This document shows, piece after piece, positions 7,196 through 64,000 of a stretch of DNA of 64,000 nt. This DNA comes from an uncultured Pseudomonadota bacterium. GTDB lineage: Bacteria > Pseudomonadota > Alphaproteobacteria > Rs-D84. The position numbers and the translations under genes are program-made. Position 1 is the stretch's first letter; each line of letters opens with the position of its first letter. The notes under the pieces are model-generated. The model was not told the DNA's origin, did no database searches, and saw nothing but the letters and a program-made list of their open reading frames with translations. Where the stretch lies: positions 7,533-71,532 of the forward strand of contig CADCAA010000001.1 of NCBI GenBank assembly GCA_902799285.1, written 5' to 3'.

Positions 7196-7925
7196 ACATC
7201 GTGAAATCTTCGCCCAGATAGACCTTTTTTACCTGGTTGTCGGCGGTAATTTCGCGCGCGGTGCCGTGCTTTAATATTTTTCCGTCGTGCAACACATAAC
7301 TGCGGTCCGTGATGCCCAATGTTTCGCGGACGTTGTGGTCGGTGATAATTACGCCCAGGCCGCGATCCTTTAATTGTGATACCAAAGAACGGATTTCATT
7401 CACCGCGATTGGGTCAATACCGGCAAATGGTTCGTCCAATAATATAAATTTAGGGTCGTTTGCCAATGCGCGTGCGATTTCAACGCGGCGCCGTTCGCCA
7501 CCAGACAGGGCCGTTGCGGGACTGTGTCGCAGGTGTTCGATTGAAAATTCCTGCAACAGGGCCTCTAACTTTTTTTGTCGTTTTTGTTTGTCGGGTTCGA
7601 CAACCTGTAATATTGCCATAATATTTTGTTCGACGTTCAGCCCGCGGAAAACACTGTTTTCCTGGGGTAAATAACCAATGTGCAGACGTGCGCGTTGATA
7701 AAAGGGCAGGTGGGTTATATCCTGGGAATTCAAAAATATTTGGCCGGATGTGGCGTTTAATTGGCCCGTGATGCAATAAAATGCAGTGGTTTTGCCCGCA
7801 CCGTTTGGACCCAATAGGCCGACCGATTCGCCCTGGCGTACGACCATGGATATGTCACGGATAACAGTACGTTTGCCATAATTTTTTGATAAATGTTCAA
7901 TACGTAATACAGATTGTTTCATCAT
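7194..7925 (-). CDS. lptB: LPS export ABC transporter ATP-binding protein LptB
   Basis: Walker A GPNGAGKTT and signature LSGGERRRVEIARALA. About 243 aa, as is typical of LptB. It follows an LptC-like gene. Confidence 0.85.
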   Translation of the reverse strand: MMKQSVLRIEHLSKNYGKRTVIRDISMVVRQGESVGLLGPNGAGKTTAFYCITGQLNATSGQIFLNSQDITHLPFYQRARLHIGYLPQENSVFRGLNVEQNIMAILQVVEPDKQKRQKKLEALLQEFSIEHLRHSPATALSGGERRRVEIARALANDPKFILLDEPFAGIDPIAVNEIRSLVSQLKDRGLGVIITDHNVRETLGITDRSYVLHDGKILKHGTAREITADNQVKKVYLGEDFTM

Positions 7926-29216: not shown

Positions 29217-29240
29217 ATGCTTGGTGGGAGATATAGAGAT

Positions 29241-30869
29241 ATGAGAAGTTTGTTGAAAAAATTTGTTGTGTTTGCGTTTCTGGGGGCTGTGCTGGCGGGC
29301 TGTGCGCGTGAACAATCGGCCAAGGTTGCGGCGACCGTTGACCAGGATTTCGTTAACGCGTATGATGCGTTTGAAATGGCAAAAAATCCCCGTGCCAAGG
29401 TGGCCAGTGGCGATACGGTATCTGTATCCGAAGGTGTATGGTTGGGGAATAAATCGATATCGCTGGAACATCGCAATAATTTGCCGGCGCAATTTGAAAC
29501 GGATACGGGCATTACGATTTTGCTGGATGAACCTGTGACGTTGCAGGTTTTGGCGAATAATATCAATACTGTGACACATATTCCGGTTAAAATCGACAGG
29601 CAAATTAATTCTGAAAAATTGAAAAAGACAATCAATGTCGCATATACCGGTAAATTGTCCGGATTGCTGTCCCAGGTTGCAACCGATTTAGACCTGTTGT
29701 GGTATTATGATAAAAATTCGATTGTGTTTTATGAAACGGAAACGCGCACGTTTTCATTGTATGCGCTGGGGACCGATATTTCGTACCAGACCGCCGTGTC
29801 GACCGATAATTCCAGTAATGTTGTGCTGGAATCAACAATGAAGGAATGGGACGAGGTTGAAAAGGCCCTGACCGCGATTGTTGGTAATGCGGAAAATTCT
29901 GATTTCACCGTGTCGCGCAGTTTGGGAACAATTACCGCCACGGCACCACCGTCTGTGTTGGCGCGTATCAGTGACTATGTTGATCGGCAAAACAAACGGT
30001 TGTCGCAATTGGTGACAATTGATGTCAAGGTTTTACAGGTATCAATCGCGAACGATTCGGCATTCGGGTTGAATTTGGCGGCGGCGATAAATTCTACATC
30101 TGGGTTGAATATCGTTGCGAACCCCAAGAATAACTTGGCGGCCGTCGGGGCCAGTTCGATGAACATCGCCGTGTTGTCAAACGCGCTGTCTGCGACAACG
30201 GGTGCGACGCACGTCGAAAACGGCAGTGTGGTCAGTGGCGCATATACAAATGATCAAATTATGAACGGATCATTGGCGCGTGGCGCGGGCAGTGCCGGCT
30301 TGATTGAGGCTTTGGCAAAACAGGGCAAGGTGTCTTTGGTGACAAATGTTGGTGTGACGACGCGTAATAATCGTGTTGCCCCGGTCAGCAATATGACATC
30401 AACCGGATATATCAAACGTTTTGAATCTCGCAACTTTACAACGGTCGAATCCAGTACCGTTGACCAGGCGGATTTACAAACTGGTTTTTCAATGCAATTG
30501 TTGCCGAATGTTTTGGAAAATGGCAAAATTTTGTTGTTGTTCAGAATGTCTGTGCGTGAATTGGTGAAAATGTCGACCCAATCGATTGGCGAGGTCACAT
30601 TGCAATTGCCCGAGGTCGAAGAACGCAGTTTTATGCAAGAGGTTATTATGGAATCCGGCCAAATGTTGGTTGTATCTGGGTTTGAAAAGCAAAAGAATAA
30701 TGACACACGTTATGGTTTGGGCGATCCTGACTTTATGGCATTGTCTGGGTCACGTTCTACGACATCCGGCCGTGATGTGTTGGTTGTTATCCTGACGCCC
30801 CAGGTATTAATCAGTCCGTTGGATGCGGAACGCAGTATCCAACAAAATTGGGGAACACCATTGAATTAA
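29241..30869 (+). CDS. Lipoprotein secretin, type IVb pilus class (PilN/TcpC/BfpB-like)
   Basis: ATG 29241 and lipobox AVLAGC. C-terminal secretin domain (GKVSLVTNVGVTTRNNRVAPV...GFSMQLLPNVLENGKILLLFRMSVREL...GQMLVVSGFEKQKNN...RDVLVVILTPQVL). Confidence 0.8.
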   Translation: MRSLLKKFVVFAFLGAVLAGCAREQSAKVAATVDQDFVNAYDAFEMAKNPRAKVASGDTVSVSEGVWLGNKSISLEHRNNLPAQFETDTGITILLDEPVTLQVLANNINTVTHIPVKIDRQINSEKLKKTINVAYTGKLSGLLSQVATDLDLLWYYDKNSIVFYETETRTFSLYALGTDISYQTAVSTDNSSNVVLESTMKEWDEVEKALTAIVGNAENSDFTVSRSLGTITATAPPSVLARISDYVDRQNKRLSQLVTIDVKVLQVSIANDSAFGLNLAAAINSTSGLNIVANPKNNLAAVGASSMNIAVLSNALSATTGATHVENGSVVSGAYTNDQIMNGSLARGAGSAGLIEALAKQGKVSLVTNVGVTTRNNRVAPVSNMTSTGYIKRFESRNFTTVESSTVDQADLQTGFSMQLLPNVLENGKILLLFRMSVRELVKMSTQSIGEVTLQLPEVEERSFMQEVIMESGQMLVVSGFEKQKNNDTRYGLGDPDFMALSGSRSTTSGRDVLVVILTPQVLISPLDAERSIQQNWGTPLN

Positions 30870-59167: not shown

Positions 59168-59972
59168 CTAGCTATTTTTCAAAATATTTTTTGTTGTTTT
59201 TTTCGTAATATATGTTGCAAAAATTGTAATCGCCACCGGCAACAGCAATAATAATATCCAATCAAATGTATTTAATCCAATCATTGCCATGAGTCCCGTC
59301 TGGGTAGTGTGGGCCGCCCATAAAATTAAAAACAAAAATGGCAAAGCAATTAAAAATCCACAGATTGTTGCACGGGTGCAAATGCGTGCGACGATAATCT
59401 GCATTTGTTTGGCAACGAAAGAATCACTGGCCCCGATTTGATTTAATATTTCCAATTCGCGTTTATGTAATACGGCCGTGTTATGCGCAATATACGATAC
59501 GCATACAATTATCGATCCCAATGCCACCAACAAAACCAGTCCGGCAATTGCGATTAAATACCATCCTGCGCGTATAGGATTTTTTAATGCGTTATTATGT
59601 AAGCAGTATGCTGGGCATCTTTTGGGGGTGCCTGGGGTCTACGGATTGCAGGTATTTTTGCAGTGCGGAACCCGTTGACACCCATGGCGACATCAAATTC
59701 ATCATTTGTTCATTTGATATTTCGGTTGATGATTTGATGATGTTTTTGTTTTTCGATAATATCTCGCGAATTTTTGGGGCGTCGTTTGCGTCGGTTGTTT
59801 GGATTGTTGCGTATAAGTCCCATTGGCTGTTCATGCGGATAACGCCGGTGCCAATCATCAGTGCAATACCCAATGTCAAAACAGACAAAAAGGCCAATAC
59901 GGACATAATTGCCGTCATAAACGTGCTTTGTTCGCGGATAATAGAAAAAACAACAGGTTTTTGCTTCATCAT
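59168..59972 (-). pseudogene. ftsX: Cell-division permease-like FtsX, interrupted by a frame change (two ORFs 59595-59972 and 59168-59533)
   Basis: The N-terminal ORF (TM1 plus periplasmic domain) ends at TAA 59595-59597. The C-terminal ORF (TM2-TM4, LEILNQIGASDSFV) lies in another frame that stays open upstream across the stop. The ftsX ATG overlaps the ftsE stop. Confidence 0.7.
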
Positions 59973-60760: not shown

Positions 60761-60887
60761 TTCAAGGGTTATCTTAGAAAAAAATAACAGATTGGTCAAA
60801 TGATAAAAATAATTCATTTTTTATGGTTTTATGATTTGGAAAAAGGACCAAATTATGATAAAATATATACCATAAAGTGATGTAAAA

Positions 60888-61634
60888 ATGTCGTTCAGAA
60901 AAATTGCTTTTATGGCTTTTTTTGCTGGGTTTGCGCCGATTGTGGCGGACGCCATGATTGCATATACACCATCGCGCCCGTGTGGTTGTTATCAATGTTC
61001 CCAGCCGCAGGTGGTTGAACCGAAAACGGTTGGTGGTGCATATATTGCATTGAACCTGGGGATGAATTTGTTGTCATGGGAAAACGAGTATAAATCGGAT
61101 TATTACGGATCCAGGCTGGAATTTAGCAAGGATAGTTATTCTTTTGAATCTTTGTTGGGTGGTTCGGTTGCGATTGGAACACGGTTTGGGTCGGAATTTC
61201 GTGGTGATATTGAATTTGGTATGTCTGCAAAGTTTTCTGATGAAGATGATATTGCCACGTATACTATGTCTGTGCCGTATTTGATGGTCAATGCGTATTA
61301 TGATTTTGAATCTGGGTTTTATTTGGGTGGTGGTATTGGTATCGCAAAGTCAAAAAGTACGTTGGAAATGCGATTACCGTATGGAATTTCTAATATAGAA
61401 GGTAGTTCTGTGTCACCCAAGGTTGGTATCGCGTTGGGATATGCGGCCCAGGTTTCTGATAATACGTGGATTGATTTTCGGTATCGGTTGTCCGGAATGA
61501 AAGGTGTTGATATATCTGGGGTGTTTTTATGGGATGAATATGATGATGGGGATAACAAAGAGTATACTTTACAGGTAGAGGGTGATTTGATGGTGGAAAA
61601 CGCTCTTTCTGTGGGGATACGATATCATTTTTGA
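60888..61634 (+). CDS. Outer-membrane beta-barrel protein (OMP_b-brl/porin-family)
   Basis: Signal peptide MSFRKIAFMAFFAGFAPIVADA, an alternating beta pattern and a C-terminal VGIRYHF. Confidence 0.65.
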   Translation: MSFRKIAFMAFFAGFAPIVADAMIAYTPSRPCGCYQCSQPQVVEPKTVGGAYIALNLGMNLLSWENEYKSDYYGSRLEFSKDSYSFESLLGGSVAIGTRFGSEFRGDIEFGMSAKFSDEDDIATYTMSVPYLMVNAYYDFESGFYLGGGIGIAKSKSTLEMRLPYGISNIEGSSVSPKVGIALGYAAQVSDNTWIDFRYRLSGMKGVDISGVFLWDEYDDGDNKEYTLQVEGDLMVENALSVGIRYHF

Positions 61635-61656
61635 TATTAAATAGGGTCAAAGAGAG

Positions 61657-63945
61657 ATGAGAAGTAGAACAGGATTTTATTCGGTTGTTTTAACAAGCAT
61701 TATTTGTATGCTGTCGGGTGGTGTGATGGCTGCGACCCCGGTGCGCGTTTTGGGAACAAATAGTCAATCGGGTGGCGATGCGGCGGCTGGCAGTTCGTTG
61801 AATAATACGGGGGCTGTTTCTGTTAAACCTGCGACATCTGTGAATGCGCGTGCATCTTCGTTGCGTTTTTCGCCAACTGTGACAACCAAGGCGGAAAATT
61901 CATCGGGTTCTGCATCGGTGAATACCACTGTTCGCAATCCATCGTCGGGTGTTGTTGTGAATCCGTCGAATGCGGCTTCTGCGCGTTTGTCTATTGGAAA
62001 ATATTTGAATTTATCACACTCAACGAAAAATGTTGCGACAAATGGTGGTGGTTCGTCATCTGGGGGTGGATCTTCGTCCGGTGGCGGTTCGTCGGGCGGT
62101 GGTGCGTCCAATGCGGATATTGATCGTTTGACTGCTGAATTGGATGATTTGCAAAGACAGATTAATGCCCTGAAAGATGGTAAACAGAATGCTTTACAGG
62201 TTGGTGATGGTGATTACATTGATATCGGTGGTGATGATGATAATGTGATTTCTATTGATATTGAAGCGTTGAAAGATGATTTGCGTCTGGCATTGGGAAC
62301 AGAAAGACCAATTTTAACCGAAATCGATGAAAATTATAAATTGTGGTGGTGCTATGCCAATGATGCTAAAACGTCATGTGCAAGTGATAGACAGTTGGTC
62401 GTTGATTTGGGCAGCGCGATGGATGAATATGATTTGCCCGCAAATAATGTTTCGTTAAAGGATGCTTTGGCTGGGAAACAGGGGATATTGACCCCCGCGG
62501 ATAATGGTTTTATTGCGATTGAGCAAGCAACGGGCAAAATTGGAATACAGTTTAATGATTTAAGGGATGCGTTGGGTATATCCGATGTGAAACAGTCTGA
62601 AATCCGCTTTACCGAAGATGGCAAATTGCAATGGCGTTATATGGATGAATTCGAAGAAGAGCCAGATCCAGAGACGGGTTTGCAAGTTAAAAAATGGAAT
62701 ACGGCTGATATTGACGGATTGATAACGCAACGTTTGTCTAATTTTGAAGTGGAATTGGCGGGCAAGCAGGGAACTTTGGTGGCCAATCCAGATGGATATA
62801 TCCAGATTTCAAATAACAATGTCATTGATGTTAAACTTCAGGATTTGCGTGATGCTTTGAACATTCCAAATCCCCAGGCGAAAATAGAAATGGAAATAAC
62901 AAATGCGGGTAAATTGCGCTGGCGTTATTTAGACGAATTTGAAACAGATGAAGAAACGGGCGAACAGGTCAAAAAATGGACCGAGGTTTCCGAAGATTTG
63001 GGGACGTTTGTTGATGGCAAATTGGCGAATTATGCAACCAAGACTTATGTTGATGATTCTGTGAATGCCCGTCAAATGAAGTTGATTGAAAATGAAAACG
63101 GATTCATCGAAATATCAGAAGAAAATGTTATCGATGTCAAATTTGCTGATTTAGAGGCAGCGTTGGGTATTGATAACAAGCGCAATGCGGAAATGCGTGT
63201 TGAAAATGGCGTTTTCCAATGGCGCTATATGAGTGATTTTGAAACAAATGACCAAGGCGAAATTCAAAAAGATGACCAAGGCAACGATATCAAAAAGTGG
63301 ACAAATGTCTATGATTTGAATGCTGTATTAAATGATTATGTGACGAAAACCGCGTTGAATGAAATTGTGGAACGTATTGATACTGATTTGGCTGGCAAAC
63401 AGATAAGGTTAACGCCGGCTGATGATGGTTATATTGTTTTGAACGAGCAAACTGGTGAAATCGCTGTTGATATGCAGGGGTTGATGCAATATTTGACGAT
63501 TGAAGCTAATGGGGCCAGAACGACTGAATTGATTGTGTTTGATGGTAAGTTGCAATGGCGTTATACGGATGAATATGAAACGGATAACGATCCGGAATCC
63601 CCAGGATATGGAAATCAGAAAAAGATTTGGCATGTTTTGGATTTAACAGCTGTGGAATTGCCGCTGTATGTCAAAGATTATTATCTGAAAAAGAATTATT
63701 ACAACAAAACCTATATCGATAATTTGGCGCGGACAATAGAAAATAACATCAATGTGACGTTGGAAAATCTGCATCCATCGAATAATGGTTTGTTCTTGCT
63801 GAGTGTCAGTGACGGTGCGAACAACACCAAAGTGTCGTCATGGCATGCGGTCCAGATTGTTGATGGCGATGGAACTTTGTTGTCTAATTTAGGTTCAAAT
63901 TCGAATTCGAATTCTGAGCCAGAGCAAAATTCAGGTAATGATTAA
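61657..63945 (+). CDS. Large secreted repeat protein (762 aa): Ser/Thr-rich N-region, Gly-Ser linker, coiled coil, five modules of about 100 aa
   Basis: Signal peptide ...CMLSGGVMAA, (GGGSSS)n at about 62043-62110, and five LxGKQ...dGyI.I......I.V....L..AL...G.LqWRY.DEFE....KKW modules between about 62170 and 63720. Confidence 0.7.
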   Translation: MRSRTGFYSVVLTSIICMLSGGVMAATPVRVLGTNSQSGGDAAAGSSLNNTGAVSVKPATSVNARASSLRFSPTVTTKAENSSGSASVNTTVRNPSSGVVVNPSNAASARLSIGKYLNLSHSTKNVATNGGGSSSGGGSSSGGGSSGGGASNADIDRLTAELDDLQRQINALKDGKQNALQVGDGDYIDIGGDDDNVISIDIEALKDDLRLALGTERPILTEIDENYKLWWCYANDAKTSCASDRQLVVDLGSAMDEYDLPANNVSLKDALAGKQGILTPADNGFIAIEQATGKIGIQFNDLRDALGISDVKQSEIRFTEDGKLQWRYMDEFEEEPDPETGLQVKKWNTADIDGLITQRLSNFEVELAGKQGTLVANPDGYIQISNNNVIDVKLQDLRDALNIPNPQAKIEMEITNAGKLRWRYLDEFETDEETGEQVKKWTEVSEDLGTFVDGKLANYATKTYVDDSVNARQMKLIENENGFIEISEENVIDVKFADLEAALGIDNKRNAEMRVENGVFQWRYMSDFETNDQGEIQKDDQGNDIKKWTNVYDLNAVLNDYVTKTALNEIVERIDTDLAGKQIRLTPADDGYIVLNEQTGEIAVDMQGLMQYLTIEANGARTTELIVFDGKLQWRYTDEYETDNDPESPGYGNQKKIWHVLDLTAVELPLYVKDYYLKKNYYNKTYIDNLARTIENNINVTLENLHPSNNGLFLLSVSDGANNTKVSSWHAVQIVDGDGTLLSNLGSNSNSNSEPEQNSGND

Positions 63946-64000
63946 AATTTGGGGGCAAATGTCCCCATTTTTATTTTTTGAATATTGAAAATATTTCCCA

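Follow-up and report, generated by a model that had tools for sequence, protein, structure and literature searches.

Long fibres related to phage fibres are known from Bdellovibrio bacteriovorus, in which the mosaic adhesive trimer (MAT) fibres are cell-associated (Caulton et al. 2024, PMC10769870), and the trimeric autotransporter adhesins (TAAs; type Vc, YadA-like) are modular, repetitive, length-variable coiled-coil surface fibres of Proteobacteria. Here we describe a gene whose product resembles both. It lies at 61657-63945 (+) in a 64,000-nt stretch of DNA (the window; positions 7,533 to 71,532 of contig CADCAA010000001.1, assembly GCA_902799285.1) from an uncultured alphaproteobacterium of the order Rs-D84, and encodes a 762-aa protein, P0001 (coordinates in locus L001 plus 60156 give window coordinates). 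P0001 has the modular, repetitive, length-variable and coiled-coil character of the TAAs, and it shares with the MAT fibres a chromosomal gene, a signal peptide, a relationship to phage fibres and a Gram-negative bearer that lives off other cells, and its layout of a conserved leader and an exchangeable shaft may correspond to that of MAT, in which a conserved N-terminal part, presumed to bind a cell-surface element, is followed by a mosaic remainder (PMC10769870). On balance, we favour the view that P0001 forms an exported fibre, most likely homotrimeric, on the outer surface of the Candidatus Enterousia cell, where it would serve attachment to a partner surface.

Analysis of the translated gene recovered the 762-aa open reading frame (ORF) and the N-terminal parts that the original prediction, made from the sequence alone, had listed: a signal peptide, a Ser/Thr/Asn-rich region, a (GGGSSS)n linker and a short coiled coil. 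The Sec-type signal peptide (aa 1-25, 61657-61731 (+)) consists of MRSRTG, a hydrophobic core and VMA|A, and alignment showed the A-x-A|ASSVR junction in every relative. It is followed by a basic leader (aa 26-128, 61732-62040 (+)) that is rich in Ser, Thr, Asn and Ala, has an isoelectric point (pI) of 11.5 and is unique within the genome. The leader bears three invariant motifs, (S/P)VRxLG, RxxSLRFxP and RLSIGKYLNLSH, with V29, R30, L32, G33, R65, S68, R70, F71, R110, L111, S112, G114 and Y116 as invariant columns. A flexible Gly/Ser linker (aa 129-151, 62041-62109 (+)), within which Tandem Repeats Finder detected a period-15 array at 62073-62109, leads into an N-terminal heptad coiled coil (aa 152-175, 62110-62181 (+)); its hydrophobic residues at 155/158/162/165/169/172 follow a 3-4-3-4-3 spacing, and AlphaFold2 (AF2) predicted a helix over the same residues. 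Beyond the modules described below, the protein ends with a second coiled coil, YIDNLARTIENNINVTLENL (aa 684-705, 63706-63771 (+); AF2 helix 684-704; I698 and N699 invariant), a conserved beta-hairpin of the form P..NGLFLLSV..G....W..VQIVD (aa 706-735, 63772-63861 (+); P707, G711, W729 and I734 invariant; AF2 strands 713-719 and 725-731) and an acidic, Asn/Ser-rich tail that differs among homologues (aa 736-762 with the TAA stop, 63862-63945 (+)). The basic leader contrasts with an acidic shaft (pI 4.3). Neither the translation nor a Pfam scan revealed a recognisable membrane anchor, lipobox or sorting signal in P0001.

The five ~100-aa modules between the coiled coils had been predicted to start at aa 172, 271, 366, 472 and 578, and hidden Markov model (HMM) envelopes at 173-259, 270-362, 366-458, 468-564 and 577-674 agreed with these starts to within a few residues. 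Combining the HMM with pairwise comparison, we delimited module 1 at aa 173-268 (62173-62460 (+)), module 2 at aa 269-364 (62461-62748 (+)), module 3 at aa 365-469 (62749-63063 (+)), module 4 at aa 470-575 (63064-63381 (+)) and module 5 at aa 576-680 (63382-63696 (+)). The repetition proved statistically solid, modules 2-5 matching one another with pairwise E-values of 2e-10 to 1.3e-21 (m2-m3, 1.3e-21; m2-m5, 5e-20; m3-m4, 6e-20; m2-m4, 8e-15; m3-m5, 3e-12; m4-m5, 2e-10). Module 1, with WWCY, is indeed the most diverged, as had been noted (best match shown, m1-m3, E 1.8e-5); it holds a conserved Cys232/Cys241 pair and has a position-specific orthologue in all multi-module relatives.

We propose a module layout of a GKQ-led beta-hairpin, a short helix, an IQWRY-type hairpin and a helical spacer. 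The AF2 model of module 3, built from an alignment of 107 non-redundant modules, was locally confident (predicted local distance difference test, pLDDT, 82) but not globular (predicted template modelling score, pTM, 0.44), and was mostly beta with two short helices. A Foldseek search of this model against PDB and BFVD returned nothing at E < 0.1 (best E 0.16-0.24, template modelling score <= 0.29). Pfam and NCBIfam scans of the 762-aa protein gave nothing meaningful, the 107 modules searched singly against Pfam gave scattered chance matches only, and PDB sequence and profile searches with the module, the IQWRY repeat, P0055, the terminal hairpin and P0001 hit artificial Gly/Ser linkers only. 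The GKQ-led hairpin with its helix and the helical spacer had no detectable relatives outside the family. An hhalign comparison spoke against equating the first half of the module with the C-terminal hairpin (probability 0.5%), and that idea was dropped.

The second half of the module has a recognisable origin. When the module profile was searched against 1.84 billion representative proteins, the matches fell into three classes: only 11 multi-module clusters at E < 1e-30, all from Ca. Enterousia; about 50 proteins with one module at residues ~150-240 and the same leader in front; and proteins with many ~40-aa stretches covering only profile positions ~45-68. Proteins of the third class (P0051, P0053, P0055 and P0056) bear Collagen, Gp34_trimer, Peptidase_S74 or Phage_tail_C domains and matched phrog_19976, of the PHROG category "tail", at E 1e-46 to 1e-80; their phage repeat has the consensus DGREIELQ...(I/L)QWRYxGDxxWxNLxxLxxL. 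Alignment of the module profile with this IQWRY repeat by hhalign gave a probability of 97.1% (E 6e-11) over module columns 46-85. Direct matches to phrog_19976 were obtained for 7 of the 107 modules, at E-values down to 7e-9, as well as for the single module of P0039 (E 2.6e-9), and the Erwinia phage vB_EamP-S6 protein gp066, annotated "tail fiber protein", contains the repeat. From the hhalign result, the direct module matches and gp066, it follows by sequence comparison that the second half of the module is a diverged phage tail-fibre IQWRY hairpin, usually with an acidic insertion; for P0001 itself, the link to phrog_19976 is transitive, through the family profile.

Both systems share the ~40-aa motif E-(I/L)-x(5-7)-(I/L)-(Q/R)-W-R-Y ... 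W-x-x-(V/L) and its tandem use in fibre shafts. In P0001, however, the hairpin is only half of a ~100-aa composite module, in most module copies an acidic insertion (DEFE...KKW) replaces GDxxW, and the protein, which lacks collagen triplets, carries a Sec signal and is encoded at a cellular locus. Distant relatives have additional tail-fibre-like repeats (KADKATTLAGYGITDA) and PHROG matches, and in single-module relatives the module is directly followed by 3-5 collagen G-X-Y triplets and by Ala/Thr-rich repeats resembling those of tail fibres. The original prediction, which had not recognised the repeat family, still stands in that the module belongs to no curated family or solved structure (the phage repeat, phrog_19976, has no Pfam model and matched no solved structure), but its second half does belong to an uncurated phage hairpin repeat. 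The match to a well-characterised family that the prediction had set against its own reading was therefore found only by half, since the phrog_19976 repeat matches yet is not well characterised. Two profile-search matches, P0046 (HYR repeats) and P0049 (a perfect 53-aa repeat), were set aside as repeat-driven chance. A metagenomic protein of 828 aa, P0050, combines nine IQWRY hairpin repeats with an HtrA/DegP-type serine protease with a PDZ domain and a lipoprotein-like N-terminus, an architecture which indicates that the phage-type hairpin repeat also serves cellular, non-fibre proteins.

To place P0001 within its lineage, we considered its distribution. The source genome comprises 857,750 bp in 47 contigs and is ~94% complete, and homologous loci occur in rumen and gut metagenome-assembled genomes, several of them named Ca. 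Enterousia. This genus of the uncultured alphaproteobacterial order Rs-D84, widespread in livestock and human guts, has genomes below 1 Mb, and the lineage is without flagella, tricarboxylic acid cycle and respiration and has few standard transporters (PMC12306168). This reduced way of life supports the attachment reading, in which the lifestyle would depend on a partner. The fibre gene is single-copy in the 0.86-Mb genome. At E <= 1e-5, the full-length profile matched 76 of the 151 genomes of the order, confined to 2 of its 22 genera; a multi-module shaft was present in only ~8 of the 76, and the rest matched through the leader and first module alone.

Module number among the relatives ranged from 1 to 12, and every multi-module protein followed the order 1-2-[3]n-4-5 with n = 1 to 8, module 3 being the sole type amplified. 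Adjacent type-3 copies in P0002 are 76-93% identical and their duplications are therefore recent, whereas the modules of P0001, only 32-44% identical to each other, are old. P0002 and P0003 are ~97-100% identical at both ends and differ by one module in the middle, showing that copy number shifts between close strains. Within one genus, the ORF at the locus measured from about 200 to 1,468 aa. Constant across the family were the signal peptide with the leader motifs (A)SSVRxLG, RxGSLR(F/V)xP and RLSIGKYL, and the C-terminal coiled coil followed by the hairpin P..G.Y.L.V..G..W..V.I. Of 11 same-genus genomes that the full-length profile had missed, 10 carried the leader (E 1e-14 to 7e-38) in the ORF directly 3' of a homologue of the upstream outer-membrane protein (OMP) gene; in these ORFs, of 295 to 852 aa in total, the hairpin was usually kept and the shaft was different. 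The hairpin is common to the whole leader-bearing superfamily, and its HMM matched downstream ORFs of other genomes. Judged from these alignments, the leader and C-terminal hairpin persist genus-wide while the shaft is exchanged, so that the conserved family parts are these two ends and not the modules, a point that the original prediction had overlooked. P0001 carries all marks of the leader-bearing Ca. Enterousia / Rs-D84 superfamily defined here, namely the motifs, the hairpin and the OMP-adjacent gene. Identity among the fibres was 26-59% (best tblastn segment, 26-53%; full-length alignment, 39-59%), compared with 72-90% for FtsE. Swapping or resizing of the shaft between close relatives is what a fast-evolving attachment organelle would be expected to show.

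The gene directly upstream (60888-61634 (+)) encodes a 248-aa outer-membrane beta-barrel with a signal peptide, and the 22-nt gap to the fibre gene was as predicted. The protein matched PF13505 (OMP_b-brl) with 31.6 bits (cut-off 28.7; E 2.3e-7) and ends in ...SVGIRYHF, an aromatic beta-signal; a search of the genome for paralogues found none. Co-occurrence, which the prediction had suggested checking, was nearly complete: of 31 loci, 30 had an OMP homologue immediately 5' of the fibre gene (20/20 fetched loci and 10/11 additional genomes). OMP identity among the relatives was 32-55%, compared with 72-90% for the adjacent FtsE. The sole exception (L033, G086:C12) has an OMP homologue, a 617-nt gap and then a membrane protein, with no leader-bearing fibre, and may represent a natural loss of the fibre gene. 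Near its mature N-terminus (aa ~28-40), ahead of the first barrel strand, the OMP of the window has a Cys-rich stretch, SRPCGCYQCSQP (PCGCYQC), unusual for PF13505 barrels, which could act as a plug or docking site that depends on metal or on disulfides.

A promoter-like site, TTGGAA-17-TAAAAT with TG (60836-60864 (+), L001 680-708; a consensus match only), precedes the OMP gene. The 22-nt spacer contains a purine-rich stretch resembling a ribosome-binding site, AAAGAGAG (61649-61656 (+)), and a terminator scan of it found none; the same type of scan placed an intrinsic terminator-like hairpin with a T-run, TGGGGGCAAATGTCCCCA, at 63950-63979 (+), 4 nt past the fibre stop codon. These putative signals fit a two-gene operon.

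Taken together, these features suggest how the fibre could be built. The OMP and fibre genes would be co-transcribed, and the fibre would pass the inner membrane via Sec; the Sec signal and the family-conserved Cys pair C232/C241 support export. The genome encodes one secretin, one type II secretion system (T2SS)-E-type ATPase, BamA and two TolC-like proteins. The only secretin (PF00263) lies in the window at 29217-30869 (+), adjoining the 31-kb fibre-like gene, and the single T2SS-E-type ATPase on another contig (C3:9602-10819). With both present, a Sec-then-secretin route is possible and is a candidate for all Sec-dependent fibres here. The basic, motif-bearing leader would form the cell-proximal end and may fold on and dock to an envelope partner, the leading candidate being the single-copy, 8-strand-type OMP encoded alongside it, with the Gly/Ser linker acting as a flexible hinge. 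The acidic shaft would consist of the heptad coiled coil and then the five modules with their phage-inherited IQWRY-type hairpin, and the second coiled coil and conserved terminal hairpin would close off the distal end of the oligomer and probably set its register. Shaft length would be set by gain and loss of module type 3, and across the genus the whole shaft is swapped while the ends are retained. Two points suggest a trimer: the homologous repeat is found in trimeric fibres of the collagen, Gp34 and S74 types, and collagen triplets are present in relatives. The earlier reading, that this is a fibrous surface protein with the OMP as its possible anchor or export partner, fits the Sec signal, the Cys pair, the coiled coils, the phage-fibre repeat homology and the strictly conserved OMP-then-fibre pair; the location and the coupling, like the trimeric state, outer-membrane passage, OMP docking and adhesive function, are inferred.

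A bolder and doubtful extension is that the OMP and the three-motif leader constitute an undescribed two-gene surface-display system carrying interchangeable phage-derived shafts, in which the leader strands would fold or thread into the barrel in the manner of a split inverse autotransporter. If this were true, a tiny-genome symbiont would gain a hypervariable, length-tunable attachment organelle at one locus.

Several observations weigh against an attachment fibre on the outer surface. OMP adjacency alone is no proof of a functional link, because gene order is conserved throughout the neighbourhood in these small genomes, and the tolB-plsC-DUF218-ftsX-ftsE block is also conserved among the relatives. 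Neither whole P0001 nor its module 3 matched a PHROG at E <= 0.01, and tblastn of P0001 against 50,697 phage genomes gave no match; because of this lack of direct matches, the phage link is remote and covers ~40 of each ~100 residues. The full-length AF2 monomer reached a pLDDT of 49 with the leader below 30 and predicted to be disordered, although a poor monomer model is expected because the protein probably folds only as an oligomer. Finally, no distinct receptor-binding tip domain was found in P0001, whose C-terminus is a small hairpin and a low-complexity tail.

Three other explanations of the locus were weighed: a released fibre, a periplasmic spacer and a virion fibre. Each agrees less well with the invariant leader, with the extreme variation in length, or with the housekeeping locus and the Sec signal. 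The fibre could be secreted and released as a matrix or biofilm component, or as a decoy for phages or host lectins, with a leader that serves export or secretin recognition and not anchoring. The Sec signal, the secretin and T2SS-E ATPase at hand, the highly acidic low-complexity tail, the fast evolution and the lack of a recognisable membrane anchor, lipobox or sorting signal are all consistent with release. We nevertheless consider it unlikely: an invariant leader that precedes a flexible linker is arranged like a tether, the gene is strictly paired with a single-copy OMP gene in 30/31 loci, and the MAT fibres, as functional analogues, are associated with the cell (PMC10769870).

It seems quite improbable that P0001 is instead a periplasmic or envelope-structural protein tied to Tol, FtsEX or OmpA, for example an outer-membrane-to-peptidoglycan spacer replacing a missing Pal or Lpp. 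The locus does sit between ftsEX and the tolB-side genes, distant relatives have a small OmpA-domain gene beside the OMP gene, the basic leader could bind peptidoglycan or lipid, and any route across the outer membrane is putative. However, lengths of ~200 to 1,468 aa with 1 to 12 modules cannot be reconciled with a periplasm of fixed width, divergence greatly exceeds that of the housekeeping neighbours, and the phage tail-fibre repeat homology and the collagen-like triplets in relatives also argue against this role.

It is highly improbable that P0001 belongs to a prophage, tailocin or gene-transfer-agent-like particle as a structural tail fibre: although the second half of the module belongs to a phage tail-fibre repeat family and distant relatives have further tail-fibre-like repeats and PHROG matches, the Sec signal peptide and Cys pair are atypical of virion fibres, the gene is single-copy in the 0.86-Mb genome and occupies a slot fixed genus-wide between ftsE/OMP and lpxI/trmA with no phage genes close by, and the prophage reading was rejected on this housekeeping context and the absence of any phage-genome match.

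Several neighbouring genes vary among the loci. The ftsX-like gene of the window (59168-59972 (-)) is split into two ORFs of 121 aa and 125 aa, and relatives have one ~279-aa ftsX-like gene in the same slot; the split points either to a frameshift or pseudogene or to a mistake in the assembly. In single-module relatives, a gene for a 132-134-aa OmpA-domain protein (PF00691), on the opposite strand, separates ftsE from the OMP gene (L005 4640-5044, L008 4680-5078); it is absent at the window locus. Several relatives have a conserved 75-aa ORF, with no Pfam match, 3' of the fibre gene (L002 8645-8872, L003 6292-6519, L007 8090-8317), and its counterpart here lies just past the window end.

The 64-kb window contains two more fibre-like genes, at 31.4 and 51.4 kb, and the original prediction had proposed that their products share with P0001 a GKQ joint after a coiled coil. 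The strings ...ATGKQTRP... and ...NNAKQTRP... do follow helical stretches in them, but profile support was lacking: the module profile gave E > 10 against both proteins. The shared joint was dropped as a homology and is a likeness at the tripeptide level only. A better candidate link, suggestive in its position, is between the terminal hairpin of P0001 and the post-coil joint of these proteins; the segments compared were the hairpin and the joint, CLLVEGTDGTPHWYEI versus NSVLGTDGEGNPVWYEI in relatives, and the P0001 hairpin profile gave E 0.44 and 2.6 against the two joints, which is not significant. Weak mid-protein matches to the terminal-hairpin profile also occurred in 440-735-aa ORFs elsewhere in the genome (G000), like P0043 and P0044. 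These ORFs, on contigs C24 (416-2365), C26 (26109-28223), C10 (23040-25244), C37 and C39, are probably further members of a joint-bearing fibre family.

This work defines a new composite module of ~100 aa, a so far uncurated hairpin repeat of phage tail fibres and a conserved leader/OMP pair, which might tether fibres to the outer membrane in a new way, and offers the single-copy, fast-evolving fibre locus as a concrete candidate for a partner-contact organelle. Compared with known systems, P0001 differs from the TAAs in its anchoring: the TAAs carry a C-terminal YadA-type barrel anchor in the same polypeptide, whereas here a separate barrel gene lies upstream, P0001 has no Pfam match to YadA_anchor at E <= 1, and its C-terminal 27 aa are acidic and Asn/Ser-rich. 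T4 fibritin, which we take to be an analogy only, presumably offers a similar plan, with a segmented coiled-coil fibre shaft ending in a ~30-residue beta-hairpin (the foldon) like P..G.Y.L....DG..W..V. Homology of the C-terminal hairpin to the foldon found no support in sequence, as Pfam showed no Fibritin_C and the hairpin profile found no PDB fibritin at E <= 10.

The closest functional analogue is MAT. The N-terminus of MAT is a ~130-aa beta-rich domain, whereas that of P0001, compared by description, is a ~100-aa low-complexity leader predicted to be disordered (PMC10769870). The MAT shaft, a beta-helix or prism, has V-G-(G/N)-pi-x-x-P-x-x-x-L capping loops (PMC10769870), a motif with 0 occurrences in a regular-expression search of P0001-P0047; the shaft of P0001 is built of hairpin and helix modules. 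MAT tips are variable lectin or TNF-like domains or an S74 chaperone (PMC10769870); Pfam detected no Peptidase_S74 or lectin domain in P0001, which ends in the conserved hairpin. P0001 is not a member of the MAT group, then, on shaft motif, tip domains and S74. The organisation of variation also differs, the P0001 family varying the shaft and holding both ends constant, with a single-copy fibre gene in place of 21 paralogues per genome (PMC10769870). Together with the Bdellovibrio MAT fibres, the fibre of Ca. Enterousia would nonetheless be a second case in which a bacterium has taken up parts of phage fibres to make contact between cells.

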